DNA from: Gemmatimonadota bacterium | GTDB taxonomy: Bacteria > Gemmatimonadota > Gemmatimonadetes > Palauibacterales > Palauibacteraceae | DNA length: 64,000 bases | Assembly (NCBI GenBank): GCA_963666735.1 | Contig: OY762926.1 | Location: 2,784,001-2,848,000, forward strand | Direction: 5' to 3' | Shown here: piece by piece, positions 39,001-48,000 of the stretch | Position numbering within the stretch: position 1 is the first letter of the stretch | Layout: each line of letters begins with the position of its first letter | Position numbers: made by a program

Positions 39001-42000
39001 CGCGACGTCGTCGAAGCGGGGGATGAGGACGCCTTCGTCGCCCTGATGTCGGCCGGTCGCGACTACCTGGAGTCCCGCGGTTCCGCAGAATAGCCCGGGC
39101 CCGGTTCGACTGGCGTTGGAGCGTCGACAATACCTATCTTACACAGGCTGGATGCGGGGAGGGTGAATTGCGTCCAAACGCTGCGGCGGGTCGCGGTGTT
39201 TGCCCGGTTGCATTCGGGCGACAGCCGGTGAGGTCCACATGAAGAAGTTCGTGATCGCGGGTCTGGGTACGGCGGTGCTGTATCTTGCCGTAACGGGCAA
39301 GGATGCGCCGCTTGGCGCGCCCTCGCACGCCCTTGCGGTCGCCCCCGCCCCGGACACCGTCGCCAACTCGGTCATCCAGACGGTGTGTACCCGCTGCCAC
39401 AACGACTCGCGCAGGGCGGGCAACCGCTCCTTCCTCGAGTTCGACGCCGCCGAGCCGCAAGCCGACCCCGAGACCGCCGAGCAGATGATCCGGAAGCTTC
39501 GCGCCGGCATGATGCCGCCGCCCGGCATCCGGCGTCCGGAAGAGGCGACCCTGACGGCGGTGGTCGAGGAACTCGAGACGCGCATGGACGCGGCGGCGCG
39601 CGCGAACCCGAACCCCGGGACGCGGACCTTCCAGCGCCTCAACCGGGCGGAGTACCGCCGCGCGGTCCGGGACCTGCTCGACCTGGACGTCGACATGGAG
39701 GCGTTTCTCCCGACGGAAACGCTGAGCGACAACTTCGACAACATCGCCGACGTCCAGATGATGTCCGCCACGTTGATGGAGGGCTATCTGCGCGCGGCGA
39801 GCGAGATCAGCCGCATGGCGACCGGCGATCCGGACGCGGGCCCGCGGCAGGTCACCTACAAGGTGCCCAAGACGGCGTCGCAGGCGGTCCGGGCGGAGGG
39901 CGCGCCCTTCGGCACGCGGGGCGGGATCTCCGTCATCCACGTCTTCCCCGCGGACGGGGAGTACGTGTTCAAGATGGACATGCACCCCGGCCCGACGGGG
40001 TTCCTGTACGGCATGACCGCTCCCGATGAGAAGATTGAGGTCTCGATCGGCGGGGCGCGCGTCGCGCTGCTCGAGATCGACCCGTTCATGTCGGAGTCGG
40101 ACCCGCAGGGGATGGTGATCGAGACCGAGCCCATCCATGTGCGGGCGGGTCCGCAGCGGGTCACGGCGGCTTTCCTCCTCAACGCCGAGGGGCCGGACAA
40201 CGACCTCATCAAGCCGATCGACTACAAGCTGGCCGACTCGAACATCGGCAGCGCCTACGGCGTGACGACGCTCCCGCACCTGCGCGACTTCCTCGTCACG
40301 GGGCCGTTCGCGGTCACCGGCATCTCGGAGACGCCGAGCCGCAAGCGGATCTTCTCGTGCCGGCCCACGGCACCCGAGGAGGAGCGGCCCTGCGCCCGGC
40401 AGATCATCGGGACGCTGGCGGCCAAGGCCTATCGCCGGCCGCTGGAGACCGACGATGTCGAAGACCTTCTGGTGTTCTTCGACCTCGGCGTCGAGGAGGG
40501 CGGGTTCGAGATCGGGATCCGCACGGCGCTCCAGGCGATCCTCGCGAGCCCCCACTTCGTCTTCCGTCTCGAGGAGATGCCGGAGGACGTGGCGCCCGGG
40601 GAGATCTATCGTCTGAGCGACATCGATCTCGCGACCCGGCTCTCCTACTTCCTGTGGGGCACGCACCCGGACGACGAACTTGTGACGCTGGCCGATGCGG
40701 GCCGCCTCTCGGATCCGGCGGTGCTGGAGGCTCAGGCCCGCCGTATGCTCGGCGACCCCCGGGCGGAAGCCATGGCGACGCGCTTCGCCTACCAGTGGTT
40801 CCGCCTGCAGGATCTGGAGAAGATCCACCCCGACGCGCTGCTCTACCCGTACTGGGATCACCGGCTCGTCGAGGCGATGCTGGAGGAGACGCAACTTTTT
40901 TTCGAGCACCTCCTGCGCTCGGATGCGCCCTTCTTCGAAATGCTGACCGCGGACTACACGTTCGTGAACGAGCGGCTGGCGCGGCACTACGGGATCCCGG
41001 GCGTGACCGGGGAGGAGTTCCGCCGGGTCGCGATCCCGGACGAGGCGCGCCGCGGGCTGCTGGGCCACGGGAGCATCCTCACGCTGACCTCGCACGCGGA
41101 CCGAACCTCACCCGTCCTGCGCGGGAAGTGGGTGATGGAGGTCTTGCTCGGGACTCCGCCACCGCCGCCGCCGCCGGACGTGGCCGACCTCGAGGCGACG
41201 GACGAGGCGGAGGATGGACGCTTCCTCACGGTGCGCGAGCGGCTCGAGATGCACCGCTCCAATCCGGCCTGCCGGTCGTGCCACCGGGTGATCGACCCGA
41301 TCGGCCTCGCGCTGGAGAACTTCGACGTCACCGGGGCGTGGCGGATCAAGGACCAGGGCCGGACGGTGGACACGTCGGGCGAACTCTACGACGGGACGCC
41401 GATTCTGAGCGCCCCGGACCTGCGGGCCGCGCTGCTCGAACGCGAGGATTCGCTCGTCCGAACCTTCATCGAGAACCTCATGGCCTATGCCCTGGGCCGG
41501 CGGATCGAGTACTACGACATGTCCACCGTGCGGGAGATCGCGCGCGTGGCGGCAGCCGACGATTACCGTATGACGTCGTTCATCCTCGAGGTCGTGAAGA
41601 GCGCGCCCTTCCAGATGAGCGCCGCCGAGATGGTGGCCGAAGACGATATCGACGCGGGCGGCGGGTCGGGCGACGAGCACTGACCGGAGCCCGCAGTCCC
41701 GGAACTGCTTGGGAGAACAAACCAGGAGGAGTGAGCATGGAACTCATCACGGGTAAGCACATGTCCCGCCGCACGGCCTTGAAGGGCTTGGGTGCGACGG
41801 TGGCGCTGCCGTTCCTGGATGCGATGCTGCCGGCCGGCCGGCTGTGGGCCTCCACGAAGTCGCTCACGGACGTGAAGCGGTTCGTGGGCATCGAGATGGT
41901 GCACGGCGCCGCCGGCTGCAACGAATGGGGCGCGTCGCAGTTCATGTGGTCGCCCGATAAGGTGGGGCGCGACTTCGACCTCTCGCCGAGCAGCCTGAGC

Positions 42001-45000: not shown

Positions 45001-48000
45001 GTCGAGGAGCTGGGCGCTGACGTCAACGGCCGCGACTCGGACGGGTTCGGCGCGCTCCATTACGCCGCGGCGCGCGGCGACAACGAGCTCATCGAATACC
45101 TCGTCGGCAAGGGCGCCGATCCGCTGATCGTGGCCCGCAGCGGCCAGACGACGGTCGACATGGCGAACGGCCCGATCCAGCGCGTGCAGCCGTTCTTCGA
45201 GACGATCGCCCTCCTCGAAGGCATGGGCGCGAAGAACAACCACAACTGCCTCAGCTGCTGAGTCCGAACAGCTCCGTCAGTCGTCGTTGGTCCGATACGG
45301 AGCGTTCGTCCGTTCGAGCACGGCGTCGACGATCCAGGAGTTGATGCTCATTCCACCAGGCGCCGGTCGATCTCCCGCGCCAGCGAAAGCTTCGCCACCA
45401 GGCGCCGCACGGCGCCGATGCCCCCGAAGCTCATCGCGCTCGTCCGCGCCCCGATCTCGTAGTGGACCGCGCCCGCCGAGAACACGGGCTTCGCCCGCGC
45501 CCGCCGGCGTCCCGCCCTGCAGTGCCGCGCCCGAACCTGCCGCTTCCGCCGGGCACTGTTCCTCCTGCTCTTGCGATGCGATATTTTCTTCACCGAAAGG
45601 CCTCCTGGTTGGGACCGGGCGTCCACCGTCCGAATCCTCTATCGACAATCAGGATAGGCCTTTCCGGTATTTTTTAACAGGGGTCCGCGCTTGGATCGCG
45701 CTTGTCTTAGGGCTAGTGTAGCGTCGCTAAAGTGGCGTTGGCACGACTCACCTTCGCCAGGATGTCCTCGACGGCGGCCGTCCACTTGTACGGCGCCGGA
45801 TCGCGGTTCCGGTCGTCGACCACCTTCCCGTGCTTGTGCGTCGAGTGGTTGTCGAGGATGACGTGAAGATCGAGCGCCGGATCGACCCGCTTCTCCACCT
45901 CGGCCATGAAGCGGAGAAACTCCCGGTGCCGGTGGCGGGGCACGCACTTGTGGATCACCTCTCCGGTGGCCACGTGCAACGCCGCGAACAGGGTCGTCGT
46001 CCCGTGGCGCTTGTAGTCGTGCGTCATCGTGCCGCAGCGGCCCTTCTTCCACGGAAGCCCCGGCTGCGTGCGGTCGAGCGCCTGGATCCGGCTCTTCTCG
46101 TCGAAGGCGAACACGACCGCCCGCTCCGGCGGGTCCACGTACAGCCCCACCACGTCCCGGAGCTTCTCCACGAACTTCGGGTCGGCCGAGAGCTTGAAGG
46201 TCCGCGTGAGGTGCGGCTTCAGCCCGTGCGCCCGCCAGATCCGCGCCACCTGGCTGTGGTGGAGCCCCGCCGCCTCCGCCATGAGCCGCGTGCTCCAGTG
46301 CGTCCCTCTCCGAGGCTTCTCCTCGAGCGTCAGGCGCACCACCTCCGCCTCCGCCCCGGGCGTGACGCTCGTTCTCGGACGGCCGGAGCGGGGCCGGTCC
46401 TCGAGCCCCGCGAGGCCCTCGGCCTCATACCGGTCCAGCCAGCGCTTGACATAAACGTGGAGGGCGTGCCATCTCCCACTCGTGTCTGAGATACGAATCC
46501 GGTTGCGGCCCGGGGATCGCGAGGAGCTCGAACGGTGGGTTCGGGCCCGGAAGACCCTGCGGCGGCGCGTCGAGCGCGCCAGGATCGTCCTCGGCTCGGT
46601 CGATGGTCTCTCGGCCCGGGCGTTGCGCCTCCGGGTGCCACCTGCGGTGACGCTCCCCGTGAGAGGACTTCTATCGCCCTTGCTAGTCGGGCTCGTTTTT
46701 GCCGGCTTCGGGAGTGGAGCGTCTGCGGCACAACGGTCCGAAGATGTTGTGATCCCGGACGATCCGTCGCCGCCCTACATCATTGACATGCAACCGGGTC
46801 CGATACTCGAGGGCGGCACTTTGGACGAAGACGACTGGGTGTCGAGTTTCGGTGGTATGGAGGTTCTGGCCGATGGCCGGTTCCTCCTCTGGGAGCTGAT
46901 CGCCGACCGTTTCCTCGTCGCGTCCCCGGATCTCCCGGATCGCCGCTGGATCGGACGGGAGGGAGAGGGGCCGGGCGAGTACAGGGGGGTTCGATGGGTT
47001 CGCTCACACGGCAATCGACTTCACGTTTTTGACGTTCACAACCTGCGTCGTACCGTGCTAGACGCGGAGAGCTTCGAAACACTCCACACCAACTCTCTCG
47101 GACTGTACGGAAACTACTGTTGTGACGCGGCCGTGCTTGACGACTCATCGTACGTGATCAGTGCGATGAGCTACTTGCCGGAGCGCGTCGGGTACGCCCT
47201 CCACCGTTTCGACGGGGACGGCACCGTGGGGGTCTCCTTCGATGAGGTGTCGGTCGGAACGGTACCGGCGGACCAAAGCTATCGGTGGTTGGATCCGGCG
47301 TCGCGCAGTGGGCACGTTTGGTCCGCCTCATTCTACGAGTACAGAATCGACCTCTGGGATGCGGTCGAGGGGAAGCGGAGCCGCTCGGTGACTAGAGAGG
47401 CGGAATGGGTGCTCCCCCGGCACGTTCGGGAGACGTGGGAAGCGGGCAAGCCCGGATTGCTGATGGTCACGGGTGTGGCGGAAGATCCGCAGGGCCGGCT
47501 GTGGGTGATCCTCCGGGTGCCGACGCAGTCGCCCCCACCGGCCGCTTGCTTCGAGCTCGTGTCCAACCAGGCACGCGAGGGTCCCACGTACACGACTCGC
47601 GAAGCCTGCAAACCGCTGTATTACACGAGGGTCGAGGTGCTCGACCCCTGGGCCGGTCGCGTCCTCGCCGCCTGGAACGCCCCTGCAGAACTCTCCCGGG
47701 ATTTGGTGCCCTCGGGAGTCATGGATGATGGCACCCTATACTCACTGGGACGGACTACCCTCGGGTTCCCAACTGTCAGACTGTGGAACTCAACCCTCAA
47801 GCCGAGGTAAACACCTCACGGAGGTCAGAATGCGACACGTTAGACGGCTTGGTGCCGTGTTGTTGCTGGTCCTTTGCGCCACCGAGACGCTGGTTGCGCA
47901 ACAAGACGACAATTGTGTGGACTGTACAAACTACTGGGTTGAAGAGTGGAAAGATGAGGATCAAGCGGGCTGGGGACATACGGCAGCTGACGCACGTCAT

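Follow-up and report, generated by a model that had tools for sequence, protein, structure and literature searches.

The five ankyrin-repeat proteins encoded by this sponge-associated Gemmatimonadota bacterium are very probably dedicated, non-host-directed members of an exported three-gene module. They are best read, tentatively, as AnkB-like accessory subunits of a periplasmic haem and metal oxidoreductase. We analyzed one copy of the module in a window of 64,000 nucleotides (contig OY762926.1, positions 2,784,001–2,848,000 of the forward strand). Over long stretches, two DNA runs from two studies were identical to the window at every letter, which indicates that it is not an assembly artefact. 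The three genes lie on the plus strand and encode a DUF1592-type dihaem cytochrome c (39239–41683; 814 aa; Pfam, alignment, and AF2 model), a DUF1552/HXXSHH protein (41737–43137; 466 aa; HXXSHH/DUF1552 Pfam E 2.6e-90), and an exported ankyrin-repeat protein (43174–45261; 695 aa; Pfam and alignments). The intergenic gaps are 53 bp between the cytochrome and DUF1552 genes and 36 bp between the DUF1552 and ankyrin genes, and no fourth gene is conserved beside the triplet.

A phmmer search of the 17,114 six-frame ORFs of the genome, which is 94% complete by markers, gave exactly five matches for each of the three proteins. All Ank_2 (20/20) and Ank (43/43) Pfam matches in the whole genome were confined to the five module ankyrin ORFs, and an ankyrin-repeat profile at E ≤ 10 recovered the same five and no others. 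Exactly five HXXSHH genes were found, and the adjacent cytochrome-DUF1552 pair was present in all five copies. The preliminary description had placed every ankyrin gene third, after genes for a dihaem DUF1592 cytochrome and a DUF1552 protein, with two CxxCH motifs in each cytochrome and a terminal CxxC in four of the five ankyrins. Our phmmer and Pfam searches reproduced all of these observations, including the other four copies at contig positions 218599–224320, 1624999–1630987, 2871228–2876904, and 2911113–2917056. The exceptional ankyrin (contig 2915074–2917056) has C-x11-C followed by 29 more residues.

The triplet also proved to be general beyond this genome, as had been proposed. A DUF1552 gene precedes 82 of the 84 ankyrin genes at GTDB loci, and both misses are ≤200 bp from a contig start. 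Among 81 DUF1552 loci in five whole genomes, an ankyrin gene was found within 6 kb of 72 and directly downstream of 53, and 9 have none within 6 kb; the chance expectation of an ankyrin near DUF1552 was about 7% in genome G116. A hand tally of ten same-genus genomes gave linkage for 47/47 module ankyrins. These genomes contain 60 ankyrin ORFs, of which the other 13 form a separate patchy class; therefore, the statement that all ankyrins are module genes fails for the genus. In G102, a genome with soil in its title, all six DUF1552 genes are directly followed by a full-length ankyrin gene (6 in 3.5 Mb, versus 5 module ankyrins in 4.0 Mb here), in agreement with the earlier claim that free-living bacteria also have the module. 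Because soil bacteria carry the same set, the ankyrins probably serve a periplasmic enzyme rather than manipulate a host. The distance matrices of the three genes are correlated (rho 0.69–0.70; 0/999 permutations; 45 triplets), as expected of genes that are inherited together, and the five paralogues are 49–60% identical, which we read as old paralogy.

The window cytochrome consists, in order, of an N-terminal export signal, a small cytochrome c domain, PSD3, a jelly-roll insert, PSD5, PSD4, PSCyt3, and PSD2; all five of PSD3, PSD5, PSD4/DUF1592, PSCyt3, and PSD2 scored above the Pfam cut-off. The AF2 model of residues 40–795 had a pLDDT of 88.4 and a pTM of 0.88. Two CxxCH motifs are present per cytochrome in 64/64 triplets, at residues 50–54 and 678–682 in the window copy. 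In the haem 1 motif C50-x-x-C53-H54 (39386–39400, plus strand), C50 is conserved in 99% and C53 and H54 in 100% of 121 aligned rows. M92, downstream of this motif, is conserved in 99% of the rows, and the Met motif occurs in 62/64 triplets; Met91/Met92 is likely the distal ligand of a predicted class I His/Met haem. All four residues of the haem 2 motif H672-x5-C678-x-x-C681-H682 in PSCyt3 (41252–41284, plus strand) are conserved in 100% of the 121 rows, with the motif present in 64/64 triplets, and its sequence suggests a possible bis-His haem. The insert (residues ~198–361; 39830–40321, plus strand) was assigned as a jelly-roll β-sandwich from the structure match of the model. It aligned with CBM36, CBM6, and CBM35 with Z 8.0–9.5 and rmsd 2.5–3.4 over 103–112 residues (VIA-align), so the modelled insert appears CBM-like in shape, with a fold that is common. 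The genome encodes a haem maturation system with two Cytochrom_C_asm genes, whose frames of 691 and 239 aa are read as CcmF and CcmC.

The AF2 model of the DUF1552 protein had a pLDDT of 88.9 and a pTM of 0.90. Over the range 42–465, it matched ENPP7 with Z 16.0 and rmsd 3.5 (245 aligned residues) and sulfatases with Z 15–16, and Foldseek was concordant. The search returned 69 chains at Z ≥ 8 and then dropped, with just 70 at Z ≥ 5. The model thus indicates that the core α/β/α fold is that of the alkaline phosphatase superfamily, although a fold in common does not establish a function. Candidate ligands were mapped by motif register and strand order using tool-derived NPP motifs; a profile-profile alignment with NPPs gave a probability of 0.2% and no support for this mapping. 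By motif register, T(0)...T(+9) of NPPs lines up with H120...T129, which places His120 (42094–42096, plus strand; 98% of 82 distant relatives) at the position of the superfamily Ser/Thr/Cys-formylglycine nucleophile. The HxxSHH motif (42754–42771, plus strand; H340 98%, H344 98%, and H345 89%) is in register with the NPP metal-1 motif DxxxH..G, with Asp replaced by His, and D397...H401 (42925–42939, plus strand; 81% and 97%, respectively) may supply one or more further metal ligands, H401 fitting the distal His of metal 1 by register. No DH second-metal pair was found at 393–395 in either register, these positions being S, G, or hydrophobic, and the alignment of relatives contained no conserved strand-1 Asp at 53–56. 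Because, by motif register, His stands in place of the nucleophile and the ligands of the second metal are missing, one His-rich metal site is suggested. In regard to export, the Tat signal given in the preliminary description agrees with an RR motif (in the window copy and in 62/64 complete triplets) and was only weakly matched by Pfam TAT_signal (16.2 bits versus a cut-off of 22.7); a TatC gene is present in the genome. The DUF1552 family comprises 18,046 clusters at 50% identity.

The ankyrin protein has plain N-terminal repeats, a variable linker, and C-terminal repeats with conserved insertions. A hydrophobic N-terminal segment was found in 60/64 triplets, and an internal TM segment was absent in 64/64. 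The linker of the window copy is an acidic low-complexity segment of 135 aa (43849–44253, plus strand; 39 Glu, 31 Ala, and 16 Pro) with short tandem repeats at 43997–44092; it is the longest among the paralogues, the others having a gap there in the alignment. The C-terminal CxxC (45247–45258, plus strand) is present in 89/89 C-termini of its clade, being terminal in 85 and one residue from the end in 4. None of the 16 ankyrins of a second class has it, and the motif marks one clade only. Because of this second class, the terminal dithiol cannot be the general role.

In the reading that we tentatively prefer, the three genes would together encode a single periplasmic enzyme system serving the metabolism of the bacterium itself, from which it would follow that the ankyrins are not host-directed. 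A periplasmic location is favored because the only secretin found in the genome sits among type IV pilus genes (gene names read from sequences). The DUF1552 protein would fold in the cytoplasm, exit by Tat, and act as the catalytic subunit; its scaffold would have given up phosphoryl/sulfuryl transfer and would hold one His-rich transition-metal site formed by H120, H340, H344, and H401, with H345/D397 close by. The Sec-exported DUF1592 protein would be its electron partner, with PSCyt3 haem 2 beside the catalytic site, electrons leaving for the respiratory chain by way of His/Met haem 1, and the jelly-roll insert helping to bind substrate. The ankyrin would serve the pair as an accessory subunit in contact with it, and assembly or activity would depend on the ankyrin in the way that the catalase KatB depends on AnkB; in the clade of the window copy, its terminal dithiol may act on the extra Cys167 or on a metal. 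Among the five old paralogues, the small organic substrate that is oxidised probably differs. The earlier view of a periplasmic redox module that is not host-directed is supported in part: a widespread exported module has the ankyrins as dedicated members, while the redox part of the view is deduced from the haem motifs and the altered DUF1552 site. A broader and more speculative proposal is that DUF1552 may be an unrecognised redox enzyme class, in which an alkaline phosphatase scaffold was converted to a mononuclear four-His copper/iron site. A dihaem cytochrome whose fold is unsolved would be wired to this enzyme, and a dedicated ankyrin would mature or aim it. The module, with up to dozens of copies per genome, might then supply most of the "eukaryote-like" ankyrin signal of sponge Gemmatimonadota and Luteitaleia/Vicinamibacteria.

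The DUF1552 protein could instead still be a hydrolase or group-transfer enzyme, using phospho-His120 or metal-activated water at a single Zn/Mn site, with structural, regulatory, or substrate-capturing roles for the cytochrome and ankyrin. The top 50 fold matches are all superfamily hydrolases or transferases, the metal-1 histidines appear retained by motif register, exported hydrolases are among the genes flanking the window triplet, and PSCyt genes occur near sulfatase genes in the available part of He et al. 2017 (PMC5615132). However, the usual nucleophile, strand-1 Asp, and DH pair are unconserved, H120 is missing in 2/22 DUF1552 proteins of G116, and a partner with two invariant haem motifs (64/64 triplets) would be needless for a hydrolase, which makes this explanation unlikely. 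We also consider it rather unlikely that the ankyrin recognises the substrate or sets specificity, or itself contributes to the active site, instead of being a maturation factor, with paralogous modules differing mainly in the ligand of the ankyrin. The large conserved insertions of its C-terminal half contain invariant Trp, Arg, His, and Asp, every paralogue retains its own ankyrin, and the three genes co-evolve; against this, some loci (L056 and L074) have two cytochrome-DUF1552 pairs per one ankyrin, and ankyrin variability does not exceed that of the cytochromes (59% versus 60% mean identity).

A periplasmic redox/ligand sensor or stress-protection complex, for example for peroxide handling, appears improbable in place of a catabolic enzyme. 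The triplet has no conserved neighbour with a membrane or signalling function, and up to 36 module copies per genome better suit substrate diversification, although AnkB/AnkA accompany catalases and one table of stress-regulated genes includes a DUF1552 gene of R. baltica (PMC2754498). The cytochrome model weakly matched the peroxidase YhjA (83 aligned), but its Z of 7.4 falls within background. Least probable is that sponge cells are the main or an additional target of the ankyrins, which would then be eukaryote-like proteins, and that the genus has kept the module for this use. Ankyrin richness is indeed reported for sponge Gemmatimonadota (0.25%, against 0.09% in seawater; PMC8163846), and the module occurs in 24/24 genomes of the genus, 1/16 of the sister family, and 0/3 other genera of the family; because of this concentration within the order, selection in a host niche is possible. 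Nevertheless, with equal or higher copy number in the soil-named G102, the module is neither restricted to nor expanded in host-associated lineages, though enriched in the genus within its order. The paralogues form no Palauibacter-specific expansion, and the window copy falls together with homologues from outside Palauibacter, G102 among them. The best match to Dot/Icm Ank effector families was 115.6 bits, far under the 600-bit cut-off, and the separate patchy ankyrin class of relatives fits a host role better.

Ankyrin counts are widely used as a marker of symbiosis. Robbins 2021 (PMC8163846) counts Gemmatimonadota, at 0.25% of genes, and Luteitaleia, at 0.55%, among the sponge lineages rich in ankyrins, and a coral study took >0.2% ankyrin to suggest a host-associated lifestyle (PMC9868349). 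One soil-shared operon accounts for 5/5 ankyrins here, 47/60 in the ten same-genus genomes, and 30/33 ankyrin loci in one Vicinamibacterales genome. Ankyrin counts therefore need filtering by gene context. The module could explain the reported richness of sponge Gemmatimonadota and Luteitaleia, and the ankyrins left after filtering point to better candidates for a part in host interaction. The DUF1592/DUF1552 pair forms a large family that is directly testable through the predicted fold, the named candidate ligands, the third partner, and the link to Cbp2D.

The group III cytochrome domains reportedly trace to Studholme 2004. In He et al. 2017 (PMC5615132, Text S1), a DUF1552 gene neighbours a gene for a PSCyt3/PSD cytochrome of group III ("planctomycete-specific cytochrome"), which qualifies the preliminary statement that no paper holds two of DUF1592, DUF1552, and ankyrin, the pair having appeared under other names. 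In that source, PSCyt3 likewise occurs with PSD4 and usually with PSD2, PSD3, and PSD5, adjoins DUF1552, and is predicted to be periplasmic. Its pairs, from Planctomycetes and Verrucomicrobia, are described without ankyrin, which is mentioned 0 times across the text and seven searchable supplements. In contrast, the module here has a near-constant third ankyrin gene, Gemmatimonadota and Acidobacteriota hosts, and a cytochrome with an internal jelly-roll insert. No earlier description of the ankyrin as a partner of the pair was found in the literature searched.

A Cbp2D-type relative has already been studied experimentally. Passages on Cellvibrio japonicus Cbp2D and Teredinibacter TERTU_2913/3803 present these as X183-DUF1587-X132 proteins (PMC8981238, PMC10916295, PMC12542752), and a CBM2-bearing Cellvibrio protein was named DUF1592-containing (PMC6004670). 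By published labels, and in architecture only, the window cytochrome resembles the core of Cbp2D, with a small His/Met cytochrome c, DUF1587 (PSD3), and a second CxxCH domain of unsolved fold in the same order. According to these passages, copper enzymes receive electrons from the X183 domain of Cbp2D, a cytochrome c with His/Met ligation and a potential of +193 mV (PMC8981238), whereas the T. turnerae X183 domains failed to drive an LPMO (PMC10916295). Cbp2D is needed for growth on cellulose, and the passages on it mention no DUF1552 or ankyrin partner; its appended CBM2, X158, and FN3 domains were not detected by Pfam in the window cytochrome. CjX183 (PDB 7B21) was absent among the structure matches listed for the cytochrome model.

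The modelled DUF1552 protein shares the core fold (Z 13–16) with the alkaline phosphatase superfamily (ENPP/NPP, sulfatases, LtaS, and PafA) and has putative metal-1 histidines in register with it, but is 7–13% identical, has, by register, His at the nucleophile position and in place of the DxxxH Asp, lacks the second-metal ligands, and has a fixed haem partner. In host-associated genomes, Pfam (PF00023 and PF13857) would count the module ankyrins among the eukaryote-like ankyrins described for sponge and coral symbionts (PMC8163846, PMC9868349); unlike those, they have a fixed operon context, are shared with soil bacteria, and show old paralogy, and the ankyrins of relatives that lie outside the module belong to another class, which is patchy. 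Compared by description, AnkB differs in that its partner is a catalase, the ankyrins here being ~600–700 aa long and having conserved insertions as well as a terminal CxxC. The likeness is that both are exported ankyrins encoded behind a haem enzyme, and AnkB, described for Pseudomonas and Myxococcus, is reported to be required for KatB activity (PMC12754779, citing Howell 2000) and has no host role.

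The three genes of the module lie on the same strand, and the Pfam matches were PSD3/PSD5/PSD4/PSCyt3/PSD2 for gene 1 (window 39239–41683), HXXSHH (DUF1552) for gene 2 (41737–43137) and ankyrin repeats for gene 3 (43174–45261). The genome measures 3.98 Mb and is 94% complete, and a phmmer search of its 17,114 ORFs gave exactly five copies of each triplet protein, the DUF1552 genes of the genome numbering five. All Ank_2 (20/20) and Ank (43/43) matches in the whole genome fell within the five third genes, and a repeat profile applied to the whole genome at E ≤10 detected no ankyrin ORF beyond them. 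These results bear out the preliminary description, which placed all five ankyrin genes third in such a triplet and reported a CxxC end for four of the five proteins; the fifth ends in C-x11-C with a 29-residue tail. A shadow ORF or an assembly artefact was ruled out by the Pfam domains and by DNA runs from two studies, to which the window sequence was identical over long pieces. The five ankyrin paralogues were 49–60% identical, and a quick tree, unrooted, placed the window ankyrin with six non-Palauibacter sequences, including a soil-named one (SH-aLRT 99), which rules out a recent symbiont-specific duplication. The nearest named records were Ca. Palauibacter, and the window was 95% identical at the nucleotide level to a closely related locus (L005) over about 10 kb. 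The sponge association of the source genome rests on the literature of its order (PMC10469786) and on the presence of a related strain in a library that carries the label sponge metagenome.

We scanned GTDB with the ankyrin alignment and obtained at least 666 relatives, the best 80 of which were kept and gave 73 loci from Gemmatimonadota, Acidobacteriota and a few other groups. Among these best 80 of at least 666, DUF1552 was located ≤400 bp upstream in 82 of the 84 ankyrin genes with the start present, and in the remaining two genes a contig start was only 70 and 174 bp away. The gene following a DUF1552 gene with its end present was ankyrin in 84 of 87 cases, another cytochrome in 2 and neither in 1, and CxxC was found at all 89 ankyrin ends. 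Because these loci were picked by ankyrin and represent the closest clade, the linkage was also tested from the DUF1552 side using five whole genomes that were selected because they have many copies. The 82 DUF1552 matches gave 81 loci after one split gene was merged, and 127 ankyrin matches were merged by hand into 84 loci. An ankyrin gene was directly downstream at 53 DUF1552 loci, elsewhere within 6 kb at 19 and absent from that range at 9, and 72 of the 84 ankyrin loci were near DUF1552. In a Vicinamibacterales record (G116), 30 of 33 ankyrin loci were near DUF1552, compared with about 7% expected by chance. All six DUF1552 genes of a 3.5 Mb genome (G102) were directly followed by a full-length ankyrin gene, and this genome had one further ankyrin locus, weak and unrelated; its record title names soil, and most titles of the compared genomes state no habitat. 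The 82 of 84 genes and the soil-named genome together uphold the earlier claim that the triplet is general. The three distance matrices, calculated for 45 complete triplets whose kin are not independent, were correlated (rho 0.69–0.70; 0/999 permutations); one locus (L047) was left out, being absent from the cytochrome alignment. No conserved fourth gene was detected, the commonest immediate-neighbour cluster accounting for 5/65 downstream and 6/49 upstream positions. The genome of locus L048 (G121) contained 25 DUF1552 matches, at least 9 of which had an identical score at scattered positions, which suggests that a single copy has spread recently.

In ten near-complete genomes of the same genus, all 47 DUF1552 genes were followed by ankyrin (hand tally), and 13 further ankyrin ORFs (0–6 per genome) were found elsewhere. 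The statement that all ankyrins are module genes thus holds for the source genome (5/5) but not for the genus, where the module share was 47/60. The non-module ankyrins in eight examined stretches formed a distinct class with N-terminal hydrophobic segments and about 4–5 or 18–29 repeats, and no orthologue of this class was found in the source genome. A short five-repeat class (L108–L112 and L115), capped by Cys...Trp and in many cases bearing a hydrophobic anchor at the C terminus, was patchy in the genus; one member, in G017, occurred in a stretch absent from the source genome and adjoined a repeated element. The module was present in 24/24 genomes of the genus (1–6 copies) compared with 1/16 of the sister family. 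In a draw from the phylum it was present in 48/201 genomes: 8/8 of the genus, 0/3 of other genera of the family, and 21/24, 9/38 and 8/97 of three other families. Because the module is uneven and concentrated in the genus, a higher ankyrin count in symbionts can be a real number yet reflect a metabolic module, and the host niche may favour the module itself. Gemmatimonadota (0.25%) and Luteitaleia (0.55%) were reported as ankyrin-rich by Robbins 2021 (PMC8163846), and a coral study took ankyrin above 0.2% to suggest an association with a host (PMC9868349). Most of the ankyrin signal reported for sponge Gemmatimonadota and Luteitaleia could come from the module, and this sponge-symbiont angle of the triplet is what is new in the window. 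The cytochrome–DUF1552 pair is already known; He 2017 described PSCyt3 genes as usually adjoining DUF1552 genes (PMC5615132). The open full-text literature, exclusive of subscription journals and preprint supplements, yielded five papers that mention DUF1592 or DUF1552 and no description of an ankyrin partner or of the DUF1552 fold. The genome (94% complete) contained no PF00884 sulfatase, and therefore the link to sulfatases described in He 2017 does not extend to it.

RNA-library contigs from two libraries of related strains (word shares 0.08 and 0.05) covered the module, although such contigs cannot show transcription; the gene upstream of the module was covered equally in the X1 contigs. 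No convincing promoter or terminator was found near the module (1 promoter-like site against 0.5 expected, and 2 terminator-like sites against 2.6 expected). In the 45280–51200 region, the ankyrin gene is directly followed by a HicB-like gene remnant, intact in L005, and then by about 6 kb absent from L005 with transposase-like pieces, including an IS630-type transposase fragment (45713–46342). An exported 463-aa protein (51648–53039, minus strand) carries CxxCH near its N terminus, and its C-terminal part, rich in His and Met, appears to resemble PHM/DBH-type copper monooxygenases; the protein gave only weak cytochrome matches in Pfam and NCBIfam, and the genome encodes two further full-length paralogues besides one partial match. 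Signal-bearing HpcH/HpaI aldolase-like proteins (13 loci, e.g., L024 11934–12821, minus strand), creatininase-family proteins (16 loci) and metallo-β-lactamase-fold proteins (13 loci) occurred within 10 kb of the triplet at no fixed position; the window instance among these is at 53916–54944 (minus strand). Neighbours of other module copies in the source genome were an exported NHL-repeat protein (L004 13079–14239, plus strand), an AMP-binding enzyme together with a gene resembling ketopantoate reductase (L003 12979–15526, plus strand) and an FMN-dependent dehydrogenase (L002 14126–15571, minus strand).

The AF2 model of the DUF1552 protein (137 sequences) was confident (pLDDT 88.9, pTM 0.90) and had its fold matches in the alkaline phosphatase superfamily, as Foldseek also indicated. 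ENPP7 was matched at Z 16.0 over 245 aligned positions (rmsd 3.5), and sulfatases reached Z 15–16. Out of 48,161 chains, 69 matched at Z ≥8 and just 70 at Z ≥5. Among 82 distant relatives, conservation was 98% for H120, H340 and H344, 97% for H401, 89% for H345, 81% for D397 and 80% for C177/C183. When the NPP motifs are placed in register, the nucleophile motif T(0)...T(+9) falls at H120...T129 and DxxxH at H340-x-x-S-H344; of the second-metal ligands, neither the strand-1 Asp nor the DH pair has a conserved counterpart in DUF1552. From this mapping by motif and strand order only, we infer that one His-rich metal site would replace the two-metal hydrolase centre. Alignment of DUF1552 with four NPP sequences by hhalign was uninformative and gave no support for the motif mapping, profile searches against solved structures gave nothing significant, and the ESM Atlas gave no usable match outside the family. 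An RR motif was present in 62/64 triplets, and the genome encodes TatC. In the putative Tat signal (41737–41850), G19, L24, P25 and L27 were ≥90% conserved in 137 sequences, which is unusual for a cleaved signal; this segment may stay uncleaved or serve as a binding site for a partner. Two divergent DUF1552 proteins of G116 (L132 and L133) lack His120 and the Cys177/Cys183 pair and are followed by a cytochrome with no ankyrin nearby; their chemistry is possibly different.

The ankyrin protein has a hydrophobic N-terminal segment in 60/64 triplets and an internal membrane segment in 0/64. The plain N-terminal repeats are separated by an acidic, variable linker from C-terminal repeats that carry conserved insertions, and the C-terminal half matched only ankyrin clusters in the ESM Atlas. 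The single secretin found in the genome lies among genes read as type IV pilus genes, and therefore the periplasm is the likely destination of the ankyrin. System I haem attachment calls for a His after CxxC; attachment at the ankyrin CxxC was ruled out by the lack of a following His. A second ankyrin class in G116 is shorter and in many cases lies upstream of the cytochrome–DUF1552 pair or diverges from it; in 20 stretches of G116, 0/16 ankyrins of this class ended in CxxC and one had CxxC 37–40 residues from the end. Cys167 was present in 1/22 DUF1552 proteins of G116, namely the protein that goes with an ankyrin bearing a pair of Cys at its C terminus, and the Cys167-type motif in 64/64 triplets of the window's clade. 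That the two go together is only a hint from these sequences, because one clade is concerned.

What the computation shows for the module is its linkage, its motifs for export and for haem, and a fold; a metal, subunit contact, redox chemistry and a substrate are what we infer. As the likeliest reading we tentatively propose a periplasmic haem/metal oxidoreductase in which DUF1552 would be the Tat-exported His-metal catalytic subunit, the DUF1592 dihaem protein its Sec-exported electron partner, and the ankyrin an accessory subunit needed for assembly or activity, with the paralogous modules acting on different small substrates. AnkB, which serves the haem enzyme KatB, is a precedent for an exported ankyrin in such a role (PMC12754779). 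A DUF1552 hydrolase helped by the haem protein and the ankyrin would suit the phosphatase-like fold and is unlikely. The ankyrin as a specificity subunit, for which its conserved insertions might speak, is rather improbable. A sensor or peroxide-defence complex appears very doubtful. A host-directed role, for which the symbiont ankyrin counts might speak and the soil-named genome does not, is highly improbable for these ankyrins; better candidates are non-module ankyrin ORFs of the same-genus genome G013 (L113 3659–6925, minus strand; L114 2386–12048, plus strand), with about 18–29 repeats and N-terminal hydrophobic segments.

The electron partner of the proposed oxidoreductase was modelled with pLDDT 88.4 and pTM 0.88. 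The model begins with a small cytochrome domain and also comprises a helical core and a jelly-roll insert, which is similar to CBM36/6/35 (Z 8–9.5). In the fold search with this 756-residue model only the insert was matched, and the helical core, barely probed, had no clear match; profile searches against solved structures with the cytochrome and its haem-1 domain gave nothing significant, and 7B21 (CjX183) was not among the matches of these searches. Two CxxCH motifs and H-x5-CxxCH at haem 2 were present in 64/64 triplets and a Met after haem 1 in 62/64, and the genome contains two cytochrome c assembly genes. By published labels, Cellvibrio Cbp2D has in its core, X183-DUF1587-X132, the same order of a cytochrome, DUF1587 and a second CxxCH domain (PMC8981238). 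X132 is described as having no characterised homologue, and X183 domains of T. turnerae as not driving an LPMO (PMC10916295). The X183 of Cbp2D is reported to be a His/Met cytochrome of +193 mV able to reduce copper LPMOs (PMC8981238; PMC12542752), and the Cbp2D gene to be required for growth on insoluble cellulose (PMC12542752).
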